Shown here: positions 1,178 to 56,600 of the stretch, one piece after another | Layout: each line of letters opens with the position of its first letter | Position numbering within the stretch: the stretch's first letter is position 1 | DNA from: Catajapyx aquilonaris | Taxonomy: Eukaryota | Direction: 5' to 3' | NCBI GenBank assembly: GCA_000934665.2 | Contig: JYFJ02000087.1 | Span: forward strand, 124,001 to 188,000 | Length of the DNA: 64,000 nucleotides | Notes under the pieces: model-generated | What the model saw: only the letters and a program-made list of their open reading frames with translations | Told to the model about the DNA's origin: nothing | The model's database searches: none | Program-made: the position numbers and the translations under genes

Positions 1178-4151
1178 GGCAACTAAATTCAACATTGGTC
1201 CAGACCTGACATCACTCGAGGCAATTTCGCTTCTGTGGACAGACTTATCACTTCATCCACAAAGGTTAAGAAAGAAGTCGCACCTCTCTATATCCAGATA
1301 CAATCACACACAGTTGCATAGGGTTGCATTACCACGCACAATAATATTGTTCTAAAGGTCACCTTCCGGTAGGTAAGCAGTTCACTTACTGGCAACTACA
1401 GCTGTTGCCTCTTATTACCGGTACCTTTATTTGATGGTTGTTAACAAGCACAAAATGTGCCCAGGTATCATTTTGTGCCTTGAAGATGTCATGCACGAAC
1501 TTTTATGTCACATGCAGTTTACTGCAGAAATATACCACATGGAATCAAGGTCATTTGAGACCTGTGCTCCAGTCAAAAAATTGAACAATACTTACAACTA
1601 GGAATCACACCAGGATGAATCTCTTACATAATAGAAACGCACAAATTCAAATTCATCTATACTTGAGTCATTCATCTTTTTCAGGTAGTCATTTACTTAA
1701 CTCCTTTCCTGTACGAAGGAGATGTGAATCATTCTCGATTGACTGTTGCATTCAAGTTAAGGTTGCAACACTCTATACTGAAGTGAATAAAATACTGTAC
1801 GAGTATATATCGGTACAGTCACTCCAAAGCTGGAAGTCGTGACTCGAACTATGTCACATTCTTGGCACTTGCACACATGCAGGGACCCGCCAAAGTGCCA
1901 GCACATCAACCAAGCTCCACTAAATGGGATCATCCTGTTTTAACTAAAATAGTGACTCAATTATCCCAATTGTCCTTTAATTAGAATAAATCATGTCATC
2001 AATTAACAAATTACATGGTACACAGGTCAAGAATTATTAAATCTAACTCTTCAATCCAAAAGTTACCCACAAACAAAAAAAATAATTAATCAACATTAGC
2101 ACTTATTGGTAGAAAATCGATAAATATGTGAATGGTATAATGTTCAGCTATTAAAAATAATGACTAACTGAATTTCAAATCTGTAGCCATTGGGAAAGTA
2201 TTTTGTGATACAGTGGTAAGTGGTTTAACAAATATACAGCTGTTTGTTTCCATTAAAATGTGCACTCTGTGCAGTGTACAAACCTATGAACTATGTATGG
2301 TTACTGTCATTGATGTTCAGTATGGTCCAACTGCAGAAGAGATTCTGTAATGCAGGTGGGTTGACTTTTGTTAAACAACTGTAAATGTTCTGGTAGATTT
2401 TGCGCTGGCGCATAGTACCTTATGTACAATATCTTGTTTAGTGAAGGTGACTAAATAAATAATACTACACGAATAAACAATGCCCCACACTTAATCAAGC
2501 CAATTGAATTAGTAGTATTAATAACGTAGTGTCAAACACTAGTCTGGCATATTGGCTGTTCTCTTTGGAGGCTAATCAAAAATATCAGCCTACTGGTACT
2601 GCCAGGATGATTATTTTGTAATGCCAACACTCATGTTCCTTACTTTTACCTTACCTGCACTGCAATGCACATATGAACAGCTGATGGTCCAGCACATCTC
2701 AACATTTGCTGCTGTCTCTACCCAGGGAAACCCTTCATGGAAATCAAGTAATCTCGATCGCTGCTGAAGTTGTGCATGTGACGTTTTGGCTGATATCTGT
2801 GTGAATGCATTTTTTTAAAGTTTTTTGCTTCCATAAGTCAATGTTAGTAGGTGAGAGTGGAACAGGTTATATTGCAGGGTAGTTTTATTATGGTGGACAG
2901 AGGAAAACTGAATCTGGAAGGCATTTGAAATTGTGGAATACTCTTCCGAATCTGAAACTTACAAAGCAATCAATGACAGTATGATATAATTATCATTAGC
3001 CAAATATTATTGTCAGCATTTCTTCCTTCATACATCCAAGTGCCATCACCTGCAACACACATCTCACATGCCACATGTGAGGCGTGAACTGCAGATTGTG
3101 GAACTCATCAGATGCAGGAAAGAATGAGCTCCCACAATAATATTCAGCTGGCAGTAACGTGCAATCCATCCATCAAAGACAGCCTGAAAAATTAAGTATG
3201 GTTTTCCTACTTTTCTTCTACAGTTAAAATACTGTGTTCCCAAAAACACTGCATAAGTGCAAATCTTTTATCGGAAAATGGTTGGTGTTACAATTGTAAA
3301 CATGTATGATGTGAGAATTCTCTCATCTGCTGACCCTCACTTACAGGGTAAAACAAGGTGGAAAAGTAAGCACTAAATTACATCAGTTGTTCCGTCACCT
3401 CCAGTAGTAACACATATTGCATCATCTTCAATTTGGCCACAAATGTCAATCAAATTGTCTTGGAAGTTTCACCAACCGTAAGTAGTACTGCACTTCACTC
3501 TTCATTCATCTAAAACCAAACTTTCAGAGGCTCATCTCATAAATATTCTAAAACCTGTGGTTTATATTATAGTTGTAAATGACTGAAAATCCATTGACAT
3601 GAAAGAGCTACACTTTCACCACAGAAATGTACAAGGCTGCAGTACAACAGAGTTACGCCTTCACCTGGAGAGGGTTGGAGAATGACTAGAGTAATGGCCT
3701 GATCAGCAAAAATAGTTTTCCAACATTTCACACAACTAAGTCCACAATCAGGCATAATCAGTACCTTCACCATGTCTATCCAACAGATTCTCTCTCAGAG
3801 CATGTGCAGTGCTGTAGTAGTACGTGGCATGACTTTTAGGCCATGATTGTTTGTAGGATAGTGAATGGTACTCTCCAATCCCAATCCAGAAATGGTTCAT
3901 TTATCCCCCACTAGTAGGACTGCATGTCAGCCAAATTATGAACTGCTGGCGTACCTATATTACTCTTTAACATTATCTAGAAATATTGGTTGTTGCCGTG
4001 GGAAATAATAATTCTAAGTACTTTTCAGATCAATGTTATTCAAAGTGTTGAACATGGCAGTGGTTCTGTGCAAACCTCCCAATCCCACCTTTTTTGGTTT
4101 TTTTATCAGACCAAACTCACTCAACTTGTCACATCCCCAAAACCTTTCCTT

Positions 4152-7062
4152 TTATTTCCCCTTCTTCTTCTTCTTTTTATTTCCCGCACCAAGCCCCGCC
4201 CTCTGAGCCGCTTTGTCCAACTCATCTCCCCGTGGATCCCTAAACATCCACAAACCACCCAAAATGAATATGTGGCAAGCATGCAAAATGGCACTGCTCC
4301 ACACAGTTGATGGATAGCAGTTCCAGCACAACTCAATCACACCTAAAATAAGCAACCTGAAATGCAATAATGGTCTCAAGTCATATTCATGTTGTTTGGA
4401 AAATTATCAGTTCACTTCAACCACAATGTAGCATGCTTTCACAGCTTATATCACTAGTCTGCTAAAAATCTGACCCGTTAAAATAATAATACCCCATTTA
4501 TATTTGCTTCAGTTGCAAGGCTGGCTCCGAATTGAACCTAACAGTTTACCAATCCAATTTAGAAACAACTGATTCTGCAACATTCTGGGAACAAAGCATC
4601 TTTACAAAAGAACATTTTTGCACAGTGGATGCATCTTTACTATAGCCCTGTCCATTTCAGTGCTGTGAACTAGTTTTGGTGCACACATCAGACTCCCAAA
4701 GGCAATGTCCCACTGTTTACCATTTACCCCATTGAGATGAACCCCACTGCTGTCAAATGGACACTCAAGAAGATTTGGCCAATCCAACGTGGCTTACCCT
4801 GCGATTCAAAACTGGTCGAAAAGAGCCAAATGGACAAGACTAATGAATCAGCAAACCTCTTTATTGTTGATGGTGGCAACAGTGTTGTAATCATCCACAT
4901 TGAAGAAGAGCACTGATTCACAGCTGCATCAGCTGTGAAGAACTTACTCATGTAAAGTGGCTTAGTAACAATATTCTATAAATTAAGTAAAATAAATTTT
5001 TCTTACCTCCACAGGGGCTTCATGGGGATACTCCAAAGCACATATGGGAGTGAGTGAAAGTACCACACATAGAACTGGTAATGAAGTGAGCGGCTCGCAG
5101 CAATCCCAATAAAATTAGCTGTGAACATCGGAAGAAGAAACAGCTGGCAAGAGACAGATATTCCGGTCCCTTCCAAGGTATGGTAGCTCCTCAGATGCCT
5201 TGTAAAAATTTAAAAATTTGACACATCATCCAAATGGTTGAAATGTTATTAACATACCTAATCCAAGTCTTGAGGAACATTAGTATCATCAATACGTGCA
5301 GAGCGAGCAGCAACAAATGAAATCGCCTATCCAGGAAGATCTCCTCTGGAAGAAACCTCCAGTTCACAGTCCACTGGTAGAGGAAGACCCGACCAATGTT
5401 GAAGGCACGCATCACGTACCCCACAGGATTTACCGCCAGGAATGGAATCGCCAGTGTCACCTAAAATATTTCACACGCTATAGCACCAAAAATCAAGTCT
5501 TTGCAAGTGAATCCAACCTGAACAAGAGCACAGATGGTAAGCTGCTTCACAGTTGCTGGTAGTCCAAGACATAATAGGTAAGCAACGAGAAGTGCAGGAG
5601 CAAAGAGGAGGACATTCATCTTGACAGAAACACCCAAACTGCAATTAGAGTTACAAATCAGTGCTATTACGTGTTCTAAAATAATAGGTTGCAATACAGT
5701 ATTTCCAGTGGGTGTTCCTAAATAACCTAGATAAACCAACACTCAACAATTGGCAAGTATCCTATACATTAATCTCTGGGATTGGAGATTCTGCAATTCA
5801 GGGGCATCTCCTCATAAACCACAGTACACATGCATATTCTGTAAATATTCACTGGGGCTAAAGCCAATGTGCATGCACATTACAGCCTATGGAAATGCCT
5901 CTCGAATCATGCAGTTTAATCATTAAGGTTAGACGAAAATCACTACTTAATAGGCACACAGTATCCAGTTATGTTCGCAACTAAGCATTGTCAGAAAACT
6001 AGTGCATGTCACAAAAGCACCCCACAGGGTGCACATTTGGAAAGTGAAATCATGTACTACAATTGGCAATTGAACTGAACAATGACACATGCTCCCTTCA
6101 TCTTTACCAATACTGTCAAATCTAGAAAATGTGGGACATTACTGAAGGGGTTATGCTGAATATTTTTGTGCTCCTACTTTGTCAGTTTACAAAAGGGTCT
6201 TCTAAATCATCAAGCCATTCCAACAGTACATCGAGTGTGAATTGCAGTTTTTCTAGACAATGCCTACAAAAAGAATACTATGCCATTCATCAAGCGTTAT
6301 ATAGTTATACCTGAACAACACGCTTCCCAAACTCCAACGCTCATCTATGAATGCATTAAGGGCAGCGTAGAGAAAGATCATGGCAATAGGGTCGTTGAAG
6401 AGCCGCAGGACAAAAATCGAGTGGATCCTGTACGAAGTGCAGCACAAGAAGACTAGCACATAGGGTGGCACTTTTCTGGACTTGTGGTAGATGCGAAACA
6501 CAAGCGCAATAAGCAGCAAATAGCACCCAGCAAATATGTACTGCGCCAGGGCAATATTGGTTCCCCGGTTGGTTATTAAGTACAGGATGCTGTATATGTA
6601 CACAAATCCAGCGGGGTAAACCAGCGGACCAGTGTCACCTTTCAGCTCCTCATAATCCAAGGTTCCATTCAGGAATCCTTCTACTTCTTGCATATAAGCC
6701 ACCCAGTCAATCTCCGTGTCTGTGAAAAGTGAGAATATAAGTGTCAGCCACCGGGCCCGTTCTAACTGCGTCTCCTGCCCCTCACATTTGACTCTCTGTA
6801 TGATGGCCAGGTTGACAAAGGCCTCCGCCACCAGCAGGACGCAGGCGGCCAGCCAGACGAAGGAGGGGTCTGTGACCAGCCTCCTTGCGAACTCCATGTT
6901 GAAGTACTTGTTGACCAGGTTGGACGCCCTCCTCCTGACCTGCGCCAGCTGCTGCTTCCATTTCCCCTGGCCGCCTCCAGCCTGCCCGTGGGAGCCGCCT
7001 CGACCACCCGGCAAAAGAGGAGGCGGACCAGACCCCGGCGTTCGATTCCTGGGACGCGCCAT
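4152..7062 (-). CDS. ALG3: Dol-P-Man:Man5GlcNAc2-PP-Dol alpha-1,3-mannosyltransferase, 468 aa; exons 7062-6786, 6719-6311, 5638-5518, 5460-5258, 5198-5007, 4356-4152
   Basis: Motifs [48 protein letters not shown] and [11 protein letters not shown]. All introns are GT-AG and in phase. The C-terminal KKGK fits a KKxx ER-retrieval signal. Confidence 0.97.
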
Positions 7063-7224
7063 CTTGGACACGTTTTTTATGCCCCTCGAAGAAAATTATG
7101 CGGTGGCGAGCGGAACTACAAGGAGAAAATGAAGGCGATCGGAGCGACACGCGCGGGATGGAACCGAACAGCTAGAAGCGGGATATTCGATACGTTCACC
7201 AAATTTTGTTTTAATTTTAACGCG

Positions 7225-7279
7225 TTTTAACCAAAGGTTTTAACACGGGTTGGTGTCTGGTTAAAACCTTTGGTCAAAA
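7225..7279. repeat. Short inverted repeat (20-bp arms, 19/20 match, 15-nt loop) in the ALG3 promoter region
   Basis: ttttaaccaaaggttttaac (7225-7244) and gttaaaacctttggtcaaaa (7260-7279). Confidence 0.8.
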
Positions 7280-7299
7280 GGAAATTGTTGCATCCACCC

Positions 7300-7370
7300 C
7301 ATTGCGCATGCTCGGAACGGCGGCCAATGGGAAGAGTCGCGGTAACAACAATATGCGGCCAATCAGAGGG
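7300..7370. promoter_or_regulatory. Probable ALG3 proximal promoter: two CCAAT boxes and an NRF1/EWG-like site
   Basis: cggccaatgg (~7321) and cggccaatca (~7356) are 35 bp apart; tgcgcatgct lies at ~7303. All are 240-300 bp upstream of the ALG3 ATG. Confidence 0.5.
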
Positions 7371-7686
7371 CATAACCATATAACGTAGGATTTTAATATT
7401 ATAGAAGAAGACTGCGCCATTTACATGTACATAAATAGACAATTGAGAGGATTTAAGGATCATTCACACGGCAGAGGAAACCAGACCTGGTCTTGAACCG
7501 GTTCACAATAATGGCTGCTAGTCACAATGTTGCCAACCCTGGATAATACTGCAGTTGCAGCTGAATATTCTGGCATACTCAAGTGTTCAAGGCGGTTGTT
7601 AAACTTTATTCGGCAGTAAGAGTATATAAATTATTCGTCTTCCACTTGTATATTTTGATGCCGAAAATAATAGTGCAGGCAATAAT

Positions 7687-9702
<2,016 letters not shown>

Positions 9703-52443: not shown

Positions 52444-52797
52444 TTATTATTTTATTTTTTTAAATTTACGTTACCCCACTGGAGAGTGGTGCTCTTTTAG
52501 GGGGTGGTAACCCACTGTAAATTCCATTTTTCATATTTTCTTCAACTCTGGTGCAAGGACAAAAGGACATGGGGGTACAGATGGGAATTTTTTGGGGAAG
52601 GGGCACAGGTGCAGGTGCAATGTTGGAAAATGGGTCATGTGCAGTCCCCCAGGAGGCTAGGTTGCCAGACACCTCCAAGGTGCAGGTACGAAACCCTCCT
52701 GACGCAGGTGAAAGGAAAGTTCCCCAGGCGGGGATCGAACCCGGACCTTTTCACTCAGCAAGCCAAGTCGTTACCAACTCGGCCACCACACCTCCCC
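52444..52797 (-). mobile_element. tRNA-derived SINE, ~350 bp
   Basis: Pol III A box TGGCCGAGTTGG (52785-52774) and B box GGTTCGATCCC (52741-52731) at tRNA spacing. There is no acceptor stem. A unique body and an A-rich tail (52465-52444) follow. Confidence 0.8.
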
Positions 52798-52822
52798 TTA
52801 TAAATGTATATTTTAAGGTGGT

Positions 52823-53093
52823 TTGGTTGGTTTGGTTTATTTGGAAGAAGCCAAAGCAACTGTGGCTATCTGGCTGTAAGAAGAAGCAAAGGTGGGACAG
52901 ACGGAGGGAGAAACGAAGAGGAAAAAGAAGAGAGGAAAGACTGGCATCTCTCTTAGTCTGTCTCCTATCCCAAAGACCTGTCCGGCTTGGGTGGCCCTAC
53001 CAGTAGACGAAGCTACCGCCGGCATAGCTCTTGGGGTCATGGGAGAAACGCAAACCCCACCACCACGATAAGGTGGAGATACCATCGGGGGGA
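52823..53093 (-). mobile_element. Short non-autonomous non-LTR retroelement with RTE/BovB-like 5' region and (AACC)n tail, 271 bp
   Basis: 11-bp TSD tttaaggtggt (52812-52822 and 53094-53104). The minus strand reads ccaccttatcgtggtggtgggg...gagctatgcc...agggccacccaagccggacaggtc, which I recognise from memory as RTE/BovB 5'-end sequence. Tail is aataaaccaaaccaaccaaa. Confidence 0.8.
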
Positions 53094-53124
53094 TTTAAGG
53101 TGGTAATGCATTTTCAATCACATA

Positions 53125-53496
53125 GGGGTCGTCCATATACCATGTGACCGATTTTTGGCCACTTTTTGACCCCCCCCCCCTCCCTCAGTGACCGACCGTG
53201 GTATCCATTGGAACCCCCCCTCCCCCCCTTTTTCAAGTGGTTTTTTAAAAATGTAAATGTTATCAGAAAAAACGCGTTCCAAAATGATAGCTCCTCAACT
53301 AAACTGTTTAAGCACGTAAAAAACATGTCTCCCCATGTATTCTGGGTCGCTGATTTCGAATTTTAGGTTATTTTGAACCCATGTGCATCTGCAAAAGCTC
53401 CCATATGTGCCAATTCACTGTGATCAGANGTGGTATATCAGCAGGACCCCCCTCCCCCCTCCCCCCAAAACGGTCACGTGGTATATGGACGACCCC
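53125..53496. mobile_element. PIF/Harbinger-like MITE, 372 bp
   Basis: 26-bp TIRs ggggtcgtccatataccatgtgaccg and cggtcacgtggtatatggacgacccc (one mismatch), with a 3-bp TSD ATA (53122-53124 and 53497-53499). The superfamily is inferred from the G-rich ends and the 3-bp TSD. Confidence 0.85.
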
Positions 53497-53605
53497 ATAT
53501 ATGGCAGTTCATAAAAATCAACCTATGTAGTAGTCATGAAACAATCATCTTTATCATTAGAAATGTTACAAAAATCTTAACACCCATTCATCCATACACA
53601 AAAGT

Positions 53606-56600
53606 TTATGACGGAGAAAACACTCCACTGGCTCCACGTGGGCTACGTATTCCACTCAGTGACAAATGGCCATTGCCCATAGATGTAGCTCCATAGCTGA
53701 ACAACATTGGGAAGTACTGAATCCGTCCACCAGACCACACCTGCAATTAGCAAGGCAATGATAAGTAGCAACCGACAACAAACACAGTTCTAAATGCTTA
53801 CCACAGCAAGAAGGGCTCCATTTTTATAGTCTTGCTGAAAGGTGACAGTCACAGGATATTCATCTTTCTGTCCTTGGATGAAGCCGCTACCCAAGAAACC
53901 AATTTAATTTGACAGGATAACTACTGTACCATTTCAAAGATGGCACTTTTTATAGAAACAATAACACGTGATTCATTAAATATTTTAAAATTAAATAATA
54001 ATGCTTTTTCATACCACCCTTCTGCCAAAACACTCGAGCCCAATAAGGGCAAAATATTATTGATTCAACCAGTAAATGGTACAGTGCTGGACATATTAGC
54101 CATCGCTGAATGTTTTTTTCCGGCGGCGGAGGCGGCGGTGTTACCTGGCAACCCTGTCTGGCGGGCCAATTCAAACATCAGCCCATGGAGAGCGCTTCCA
54201 TTGTTGCCACTGTTTACAAATCGAGTGAGTGACGCGGACGACCCAGCCACAGGTCTCTTCTGCCTGCGCACTCACTCACTCGATTTGTAAACAGTGGCAA
54301 CAATGGAAGCGCTCTCCATGGGCTGATGTTTGAATTGGCCCGCCGGACAGGGTTGCCAGGTAACGCCGTCGCCGCTGCCGGAAAAAAACATTCAGCGACG
54401 GCTAATATGTCCAGCACTGTACTGGTGTCACAAACATTTAAATATCTCACTGAAACAATAATATAAGTGTCCACTTACCAAGGGGTTACTTGCAGTACAG
54501 GGGATGTCTTGGTCCTAAATAAGGCAACGAGGGTACTCTCCCTGAAGCATACTGCTAGCCTCTCACCTGACGGATCCCAGGCCATGTCTAAAACAGAGCC
54601 ACCAACCAGACAACCATACCCAGCGTCCACCAGGGCCAAGTCGGCCACTGGTATTGCTGCTTTGGCCCCTCCCCCTTCAGACCTGTCCTCGTGTGGAAAA
54701 ATGAGTGCATATATCAAAGGATCATTTGCAGTGGCAAAAAGTAATGTGGAGCCACAAGGACTCCAGCAGGCAGCGCGCAAGTGGCCCTCCACAGTGCTCC
54801 ACCGCTCGTGTGTCCAGCTATGTGACTCCCAAACACGAAACACGGAACTAGGGGTTGCTGACAAGAGTCGTCTCCCATCCTGGGACCAGGTCAGGTATGA
54901 CACGCCGCCACCACCAACCCTTGTCATTGGGACACTTCGCTCAGTTGATGCCTCCCACACCACCATGGTTTTATCCAAGGCTGATCCAGTAACCAACAAC
55001 TTTCCATCAGGGTGCCAACTAAGAGTGCTCACTGGTGAATGCCCACTGCGGGTGAGGAGTGTGACACAGGTGGAAGACGGGCGTGTCACAACAGAGTTGG
55101 GGTCAACATGCCAGAGAAGTATGCCTTCCCGGCATCCAACTGCAAGCTCTGAGGCAGACAAAGGACGCCATGCCATGCAAGTGACGTCTCGCTGTTGCCG
55201 GTGCTTTAGGACTGGAACTAGTGAGGAGTGCAGGGTGTAGACATGAACAGAGTCGTCACGCAAAGCCACAGCCATCTTTGTCGAGTGCGGATGCCAGGCG
55301 AAACTGCGGACTGGGCTTGAGGGCCAGTCACGCACGTGGCCAAACTCCAAGGACAAAGCTTCAGGAGACATCTAAAAAACAAAGGACACATAGCAGTCAT
55401 CATTTGAAGTGAATAAGTCAGTCAGTTAGGTCATGCCCCTCAAAGCTAGGGAGTTGCCAACAGTCACAGGAAACTAGTTAGCCATATGACCATAGCTTTA
55501 CACTGTTATACACACCATTAGATGTGGATAGAGTGATGTATGTAGCCTCTGTGCCCAGCGAAAAAAGCTCAGCGCCTTCTGTGCAAACCATGACACAGCG
55601 CTTGGAACATCACCTTGAGCAAGTTCTTCCAGTGCTGGGATCATTCCAATCTCATACCTGAAAGGCAATCATTCAAGCAATTCAGAAACAAACAAAAAGG
55701 TGTAATGTATCAAAAGAGCATGACTAACAGCAAACTGACTAGTACTGTACCACCAAGTATTCAGCTCAAGAGAGCAGAAAGAGAAAGACATTGTCATGAT
55801 TATTTCCTGTCTTCTTTTTCTCTTTATACCATCATTACTCCATCTGCCCTATCTATGTATACCAGGGCAAGTCAACAAAGAATGAGAAGGAATTTATTTT
55901 TCGCGGAATACGTTAAGCAGGGTCCAGGTTGATATTGTGTTTTTCGAGTTAGTCCCCATTGAGTTATATGCACTTGGCCCAACACTTCTGGCAGTTGTGG
56001 AAGACATGCCAGAACCCCTTTTTTTGACATCGTCTTCAGAACCACCTTCTTCATAACGGCTGTTGATGATCCAAAACGGTGGCCCCGCAGTACCAATTTC
56101 AGACAAGGGAACAGAAAGCAGTGCAGGGAGCTAGGTCCGGGCTGTATGGCACACATTCGATGTTTCGTTGGGTCAAATATTGGGCAACAACATTGGCGAC
56201 ATGTAGCCATGCAGCAGGATGCAGCTCAGGACGCTTTCGTCGGATGTGTTCGGCCAGGACCTTCAAAACTGCCACGTAATACTTATCAGTGACTGTTGTA
56301 TGCAGGGACACCTCATACTGGTAAACCATTTCCCGGATTTCGAAGAAGGTAATGGTCATTGCCTTTCCTGCTAACTGAACAACCTCGGCCTGAATTGGGT
56401 TATTTTCAGACTGAGCTCGCCTGTTTGCATTCGGGATCTTAGTGGTGAAGCCAACTCTAAACACCTGTAATGATGGAATTCTGGCAGGCCTTGCCATACT
56501 CCGCTACCAGACGCTCTCTAACAATGCAACAGGGTAACATGCAATGGACTACTACTTGTGTACATGTAATTGTTCCATGTCGATGACTTTTCTGTATCAT

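Follow-up and report, generated by a model that had tools for sequence, protein, structure and literature searches.

In the window (the whole 64-kb stretch of DNA analyzed here), the minus strand carries a short retroelement whose first 150 bases appear from their sequence to fold like the HDV ribozyme and are likely to set the exact start of the element's RNA by trimming it. Comparisons of copies and relatives show this feature to be real, and we consider it likely that the ribozyme family is active. The element itself, at 52823..53092 (−), is non-autonomous, 270 bp long and without a notable ORF, and it is flanked by target-site duplications (TSDs) of 11 bp on its 5' side (53094..53104, −) and its 3' side (52812..52822, −), both assigned with family D4. 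Copies are 81–100% identical and have both ends and TSDs in common. A DNA search of G000, an animal genome of 285.6 Mb, returned 1078 candidates, the best 40 of which were 97–100% identical, and exact patterns of the 3' and 5' ends matched at least 134 and at least 138 times, respectively. TSDs of the copies are mostly 11–13 bp (about 12 bp). Behind the head lies a pyrimidine-rich middle part (52876..52941, −) also found in the relative L101, followed by a 3' hairpin (52849..52875, −; −10.0 kcal/mol), which we infer is likely the signal for a partner LINE protein, and by AATAAA leading into an (AAACC)n tail (52823..52841, −), the repeat with which element copies end.

When 30 copies were selected for the presence of the 3' end, 19 extended to the 5' end and 11 were 5'-truncated; 5'-truncated copies with TSDs are a signature of target-primed reverse transcription. 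Without an ORF, and with variable TSDs, a microsatellite tail and 5'-truncated copies, the element is a non-autonomous non-LTR retroelement of the SIDE or bipartite kind. A tRNA-derived SINE was rejected: the pseudoknot occupies the head entirely, leaving no tRNA-like head with A and B boxes, and ARAGORN found no tRNAs in the 64-kb window. The LP-SINE, with its 70-bp head like Nimb-17_LMi, was also rejected, as the head in supplementary fig. S2 of its description is another sequence and the element's core words are absent from the three of the four supplementary files that were searched (PMC4758252). Two further arrangements were seen in the genome: at L091, two element copies stand in inverted orientation, head to head, and a MITE-like repeat with TACAGGGTG ends contains a 5'-truncated element copy (L036, L380, L396, L400, and L403).

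Read on the minus strand, the first 151 nt of the element parse as a full HDV-type nested double pseudoknot. P1 joins six C (53087..53092), of which C53092 is +1 and pairs with G53055, to GG-U-GGGG (53055..53061), with U53059 bulged. A 2-nt J1/2 (53086-53085) leads into the 9-nt 5' strand of P2 (53076..53084), a spacer C between P2 and P3 (53075), and P3, whose strands ACC (53072..53074) and GGU (53062..53064) close the L3 loop UUAUCGU (53065..53071); here the conserved U and G of the loop correspond to U53071 and G53066, and A53069 pairs with U53054 as a single-pair P1.1. J1/4 (53053..53054) consists of this U53054 and of U53053, which lies opposite U53070. P4 spans 96 nt (52957..53052) as one long branched hairpin of −32.4 kcal/mol, and J4/2, CUAAGA (52951..52956), carries the predicted catalytic C52956, a C in all 11 aligned rows and in 77 of 82 copies, before the 3' strand of P2 (52942..52950) completes the fold. 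The cut is predicted between 53093 and 53092, which makes U53093 position −1, a base that varies among copies. A preliminary description of this DNA had already recognized P1, P3 with its loop, a structured P4 of about 100 nt and the CUAAG just before the P2 3' strand, all of which lie where it placed them; its 8-bp P2 (53083-53076 with 52950-52943) is present and gains a ninth pair, U53084-A52942.

The parse contains the nested P1, P1.1, P2, and P3 of HDV-like ribozymes, in which P4 is optional, as well as a catalytic C in J4/2, then A, before the P2 3' strand, both C and A occurring in 11 of 11 rows. The L3 U and G and the C-G closing pair of P3 are also there, partly by construction of the search pattern. 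The canonical HDV/CPEB3/R2 consensus has G at +1 and a C-G pair in P1.1; the window copy departs from it with C at +1 and A-U in P1.1. A descriptor specifying P1 of 6–7 Watson–Crick pairs (one bulge allowed), P3, an L3 of the form U....G(C/U), a Watson–Crick P1.1, C-N-R-A, and P2 of at least 6 bp matched once in the window, at this site. Drawn up with the motif already in view, it gave three matches in 20 whole-window shuffles and, when the 350-nt region was dinucleotide-shuffled 2000 times, none. Plain minimum free energy (MFE) folding was no better than shuffles (z −0.72), as expected because the fold is a pseudoknot. Rfam yielded no matches at gathering score across the whole window and no ribozyme matches at E ≤ 10 in 52700-53200.

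We examined 5' junctions in 82 non-redundant near-full copies, 72 of them anchored and 55 with a TSD of at least 7 bp. In these 55, the TSD ended exactly before the six C in 28, overlapped one C in 15 and two C in 2, and was separated from them by one extra base in 6 and by more in 3, with one further case spurious. The base preceding the six C (n = 61) was T in 21, G in 16, A in 14, C in 9, and N in 1, giving no fixed G at −1. Together, the junctions and TSDs of these sequenced copies show a fixed 5' start at the six C; therefore, the template RNA starts at C53092, and U53093 is position −1. The preliminary description had counted this U as the first nucleotide and had let the cut site coincide with the element/TSD boundary. 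The TSDs instead place +1 at C53092, paired with G53055; in the window copy, a single additional base, U53093, separates the TSD from the element.

Because young copies differ too little for a pairing test, diverged relatives were sought. The local element L101 is 77% identical to the window element and shares its middle part. A decayed local subfamily in G000 gave about 100 pattern matches with a shorter P1 3' strand, inside another repeat; its members (L238, L290, and L300-L309 among others) have the L3 UUGCCGU and in every case the same flanks, and the subfamily is one old insertion amplified passively within that repeat. Metagenome pattern matches numbered 22, of which 16 were homologous loci and 6 unrelated. 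The module lies directly upstream of a 1064-aa APE+RT ORF in L110, which we take to be RTE/Expander, and precedes a gag-like ORF1 with CCHC knuckles in L104. In L246 (G000) it opens a complete LINE with two ORFs, lying before a gag-like ORF1; by its architecture, this LINE is presumably of I/Nimb type. Sequence comparison shows these heads on coding LINEs to be homologous to that of the window element: its head is 72–76% identical over about 110–136 nt to the 5' end of the single-ORF APE+RT elements L109 and L110, and heads on two-ORF I-group LINEs are as close as those on L109 and L110. RTE, named among other groups in the preliminary description, is just one of the two LINE groups that come into question.

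L246 (G000:C2786:15500-24500) carries its fold at 1896-1984 (+), with C1-G37 and a two-pair P1.1 (U-A, G-C). It has a CCHC ORF1, an APE-RT ORF2 whose RNase H part is apparently internally deleted, and a (CAAT)n tail; short tandem repeats of its own first bases lie upstream of the fold, and L296 and L299 likewise have their start at that C. P4 measures 96 nt in the window copy and 40 nt in L246 and is absent in viral versions.

For the covariation test, 14 candidates were parsed and 11 aligned; L113, L123, and L291, in which a P2 longer than 3 bp could not be located, were left out. In the 11 diverged rows, which are related to each other and among which L246 is one column out of register, 95% of the 120 cells of P2, P3, and P1.1 pair, and 31 are changed on both sides. 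None of 500 shuffles reached the observed level, and slid partners paired in 35–46%. The sequence of P2 has turned over completely while its pairing is kept. Invariance of P3/L3 among the rows is by construction, because they were found with the P3/L3 pattern, and 40 loci were picked by the P3/L3 motif, so its invariance within the family was set aside as evidence. Parsed by hand, P1 reads C6/GG(U)GGGG in the window, C7/G7 in L101 and L104, and CCCCUCC/GGAGGGG in L109 and in the virus, with CCUCCCC/GGGGAGG and CCCCGCC/GGCGGGG as further viral variants, and C-G opens P1 in every complete example. P1.1 is AU in 6 and GC in 4 of the 11 rows: the third nucleotide of L3 is paired to the one immediately following the G run, as A-U in the window copy and, by hand parse, as G-C in L101, the decayed subfamily, and the virus and as U-A in L246 and L291. 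P1.1, for which the preliminary description saw no canonical CC in L3, is thus present. In the relatives, P1, P2, and P1.1 are kept by compensatory change, while P3 is fixed by the search pattern. At the level of sequence, this covariation shows the fold and, with the 5' junctions of the copies, upholds the earlier proposal that a short retroelement carries an HDV-like fold exactly at its 5' boundary.

Within the family itself, the commonest P2 polymorphism, G/A at 52945 (55/22 of 82 copies), keeps the pair with U53081. Deviation among young copies was 4.5% in J4/2 and 8.5% in the P2 3' strand, compared with 2.6–3.7% in P4 and the 3' part; some of the deviation in J4/2 and the P2 3' strand is pairing-neutral polymorphism and short deletions.

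Viral pattern matches numbered 68, of which 66 lacked the fold and two had P4-less versions, on one IMG/VR contig. This contig (L289; IMGVR_UViG_3300033149_004566, minus strand) holds four P4-less folds within 6 kb, with L3 at 4992, 4539, 3021, and 2283; they have C1-G37 and a G-C P1.1, and P1, P2, and P3 covary among the four. One of these minimal versions, at 3041-2984, measures 58 nt. Compared with Rfam RF02682, the viral version aligns in the same register with C1 on model position 1, although weakly (15.4 bits against a gathering threshold of 44, E 0.99). The contig, from a prokaryotic virus, is 112.9 kb long; the folds lie between ORFs with a U-rich run before each, and one ORF has a weak primase-small-subunit match.

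A fold of this kind need not cut efficiently, and exact 5' ends cannot prove cutting because promoter start and cut coincide in L1Tc, where Pr77 is a promoter and a ribozyme with the same +1 (PMC3383444). The head may accordingly be a ribozyme relic, or a dual element serving mainly as an internal promoter that starts at C53092, with cutting slow or absent; we regard this as improbable, yet as the alternative to be taken most seriously. Some SIDER ribozymes with the fold are inactive (PMC4035085), and several features here weigh against activity: a window P1 limited to 6 pairs with one bulge, a very long P4, deviation among young copies that is no lower in J4/2 and the P2 3' strand than elsewhere, and a decayed subfamily that spread passively with its shorter P1 3' strand. 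However, the catalytic C, the loop U and G, P3, and P1.1 are intact in the 71 of 82 copies that pass the core test, the core is kept across LINE groups that have otherwise diverged, and the minimal viral versions keep the catalytic core only.

The register is a separate question. If the host supplied +1 (N53093, ideally G) to pair with U53054, the textbook G1.U37 pair would result, as the 16 of 61 copies with G at −1 would allow; activity would then be confined to copies inserted behind a G, and the window copy with its U would be dead. We find this very doubtful: daughter copies would then start with G, but the observed start is C, and it is with L3 position 3 (A-U, G-C, U-A), not with the upstream base, that the nucleotide following the G run covaries; the placement of C1 on position 1 of the Rfam model also speaks against it. 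That the arrangement arose by chance in an ordinary SINE head is hardly credible. The unremarkable MFE and the lack of Rfam matches would fit such an origin, but the descriptor's failure to match any shuffled 350-nt region and a P2 rebuilt throughout with its pairing preserved do not, and chance appears largely refuted by covariation.

We therefore favor self-cleavage, and think it quite probable that a host transcript is cut before C53092 and the freed RNA copied in trans by a LINE protein; catalysis, co-transcription, and a partner LINE are the steps that we infer. An element copy would be transcribed within host RNA, here probably by read-through from the aladin gene, which ends 514 nt upstream on the same strand. 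The host RNA would fold P1, P1.1, P2, and P3, and C52956 with Mg2+ would cut just before C53092, freeing an RNA that begins with six C. The protein of an autonomous LINE may then recognize the 3' hairpin and (AAACC)n tail and copy this RNA in trans, producing a TSD of about 12 bp.

Aladin (AAAS) occupies 57003-53606 (−), with its stop codon at 53608-53606 and the element downstream in sense; its closest relatives, at about 53%, are proteins of insects and chelicerates. Downstream of the aladin stop, no canonical AATAAA precedes the element's own (52841); weaker variants occur at 53555 and 53341. Other repeats share this neighborhood. A MITE-like stretch with 30-bp terminal inverted repeats (53125-53496) lies between the aladin stop and the element, a long near-perfect inverted repeat, also MITE-like, sits in an aladin intron (54097-54423), and a SINE whose head resembles a tRNA, with words like A and B boxes, occupies about 52795-52470 (−), about 15 bp past the 3' TSD; a copy of the same SINE interrupts an RTE-like ORF at L155. 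Farther away, ORFs at 6253-9063 read like what we presume to be ALG3 mannosyltransferase and GAPDH exons.

Among the matches listed for the examined RTE, I-group, and other RT loci of this fragmented assembly, no LINE had both element ends. Sequence following 5' motifs, examined in 40 stretches with a maximum length of 3.7 kb, held short elements and truncated or interrupted copies; the element ends found no match in 30 RVT_1 loci, 30 RTE-like loci, and 20 longer RTE stretches; and 37 further 3'-end loci without a listed 5' motif comprised truncations, 5 full copies, and the MITE-embedded group, with no ORF2 end. The LINE ORF at L083 was rejected as partner because a complete TSD-flanked element copy precedes it. 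The main RTE-like family of G000, with an RT 43–49% identical to that of L110, has a (GTT)n or (GAT)n tail and has neither element end in common among the matches listed. Comparison of the tail with LINE loci gave a best local alignment score of 32, against 30–44 for shuffled tails, a resemblance only; two of the top three alignments fell at I-group 3' ends, likewise not above shuffled controls. L246, which bears its own ribozyme version, has a similar-looking 3' hairpin before (CAAT)n, with a sequence match not above shuffled controls. We lean toward an I-group driver over RTE, and by analogy with R2/R1 SIDEs the head may have been swapped between LINE groups (PMC3414825). The I-group is absent from the list of bipartite-element makers and ribozyme bearers in the portion of PMC5786205 considered here.

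A broader proposal is tentative, and we put it forward as possible rather than probable: a C1-G37, Pr77-type ribozyme, regarded as typical of the ingi/L1Tc elements of trypanosomes, may be a widespread active subtype missed by standard G1/C-G descriptors. It would then stand at the 5' end of RTE-like and I/Nimb-like LINEs of animals, would have passed as a module from one of these groups to another, would power a dispersed short element whose driver is probably an I-group LINE, and would occur as tandem minimal copies between prokaryotic-virus genes. A common C1-G37 core would mean that the L1Tc-type ribozyme, known from trypanosomes, also exists in LINE groups of animals and in a prokaryotic virus. 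If cutting is true, a short element needs no Pol III head, host transcription and a ribozyme being sufficient genome-wide, and hundreds of dispersed copies are potential cut sites in host RNAs. The natural long-P4 and P4-less variants offer material for testing the requirements for the cleavage-site pair and P1.1. The literature searched here contained no published account of a C1-G37 build for LINEs of animals or for viruses; Ruminski 2011, which reportedly describes 5' ribozymes of RTE elements, may include one.

It is already known in general that non-LTR elements, and short elements derived from them, can carry 5' HDV-like ribozymes, and ribozyme-headed non-autonomous elements (R2 SIDEs, NARTc, RIME, and SIDERs) are known as well. 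RF02682, HDV-F-prausnitzii, shares the C-ACC-loop-GGU core, a loop ending in CGU, and CUAAGA with the window copy, but the model opens with G1, gives the window copy no score, and places the viral version far below its gathering threshold. Bipartite non-autonomous RTE LINEs similarly have a microsatellite tail and keep the LINE 5' end in their copies (PMC5786205), whereas the window tail is unlike the (GGAT)n end of L110 and the (GTT)n/(GAT)n of the main RTE family. R2 SIDEs and R2/R1 hybrid SIDEs also combine a 5' HDV-like ribozyme with a LINE-type 3' end and no ORF; they are moved in trans, and head and tail may stem from different LINE groups (PMC3414825). Unlike R2 SIDEs, the window element is not rDNA-specific, occupies at least 134–138 dispersed sites, and has a core that is not of R2 type.

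The closest likeness is to L1TcRz/Pr77 of L1Tc, NARTc, ingi/RIME, and SIDERs, a likeness of architecture and short motifs. Both have C at +1 after the predicted cut, a C-G base to P1 (C1-G37), a single-pair P1.1, an element start at C1, the series GGU, P1 3' strand, U, and CUAAG in J4/2, together with short non-autonomous carriers and TSDs of 11–12 bp. L1Tc ribozyme cleavage maps before C1, with a triple G-C P1 base at G37 and a one-pair P1.1; its published primers contain GGU, the P1 3' strand, and U, as well as CUAAG in J4/2, and L1TcRz is less active when P1 is lengthened by a G at −1 (PMC3185411). In the window copy, −1 is U, so P1 cannot be extended. The window element differs in its animal host and in its bulged 6-bp P1, and its fold measures 151 nt, compared with 77 nt in Pr77, because of the 96-nt P4. 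Trypanosomatid ribozymes as described in PMC4035085 differ from those of HDV and R2 in P1 G-C pair orientation and in P1.1, and earlier descriptors were too restrictive; in R2 ribozymes, P1 has 6 or 7 bp with mismatches, P4 is variable, and five positions only are rigid (PMC3774820). By the standards of these three sources, as far as the portions considered extend, the sequence of the window copy reads as that of an intact ribozyme.
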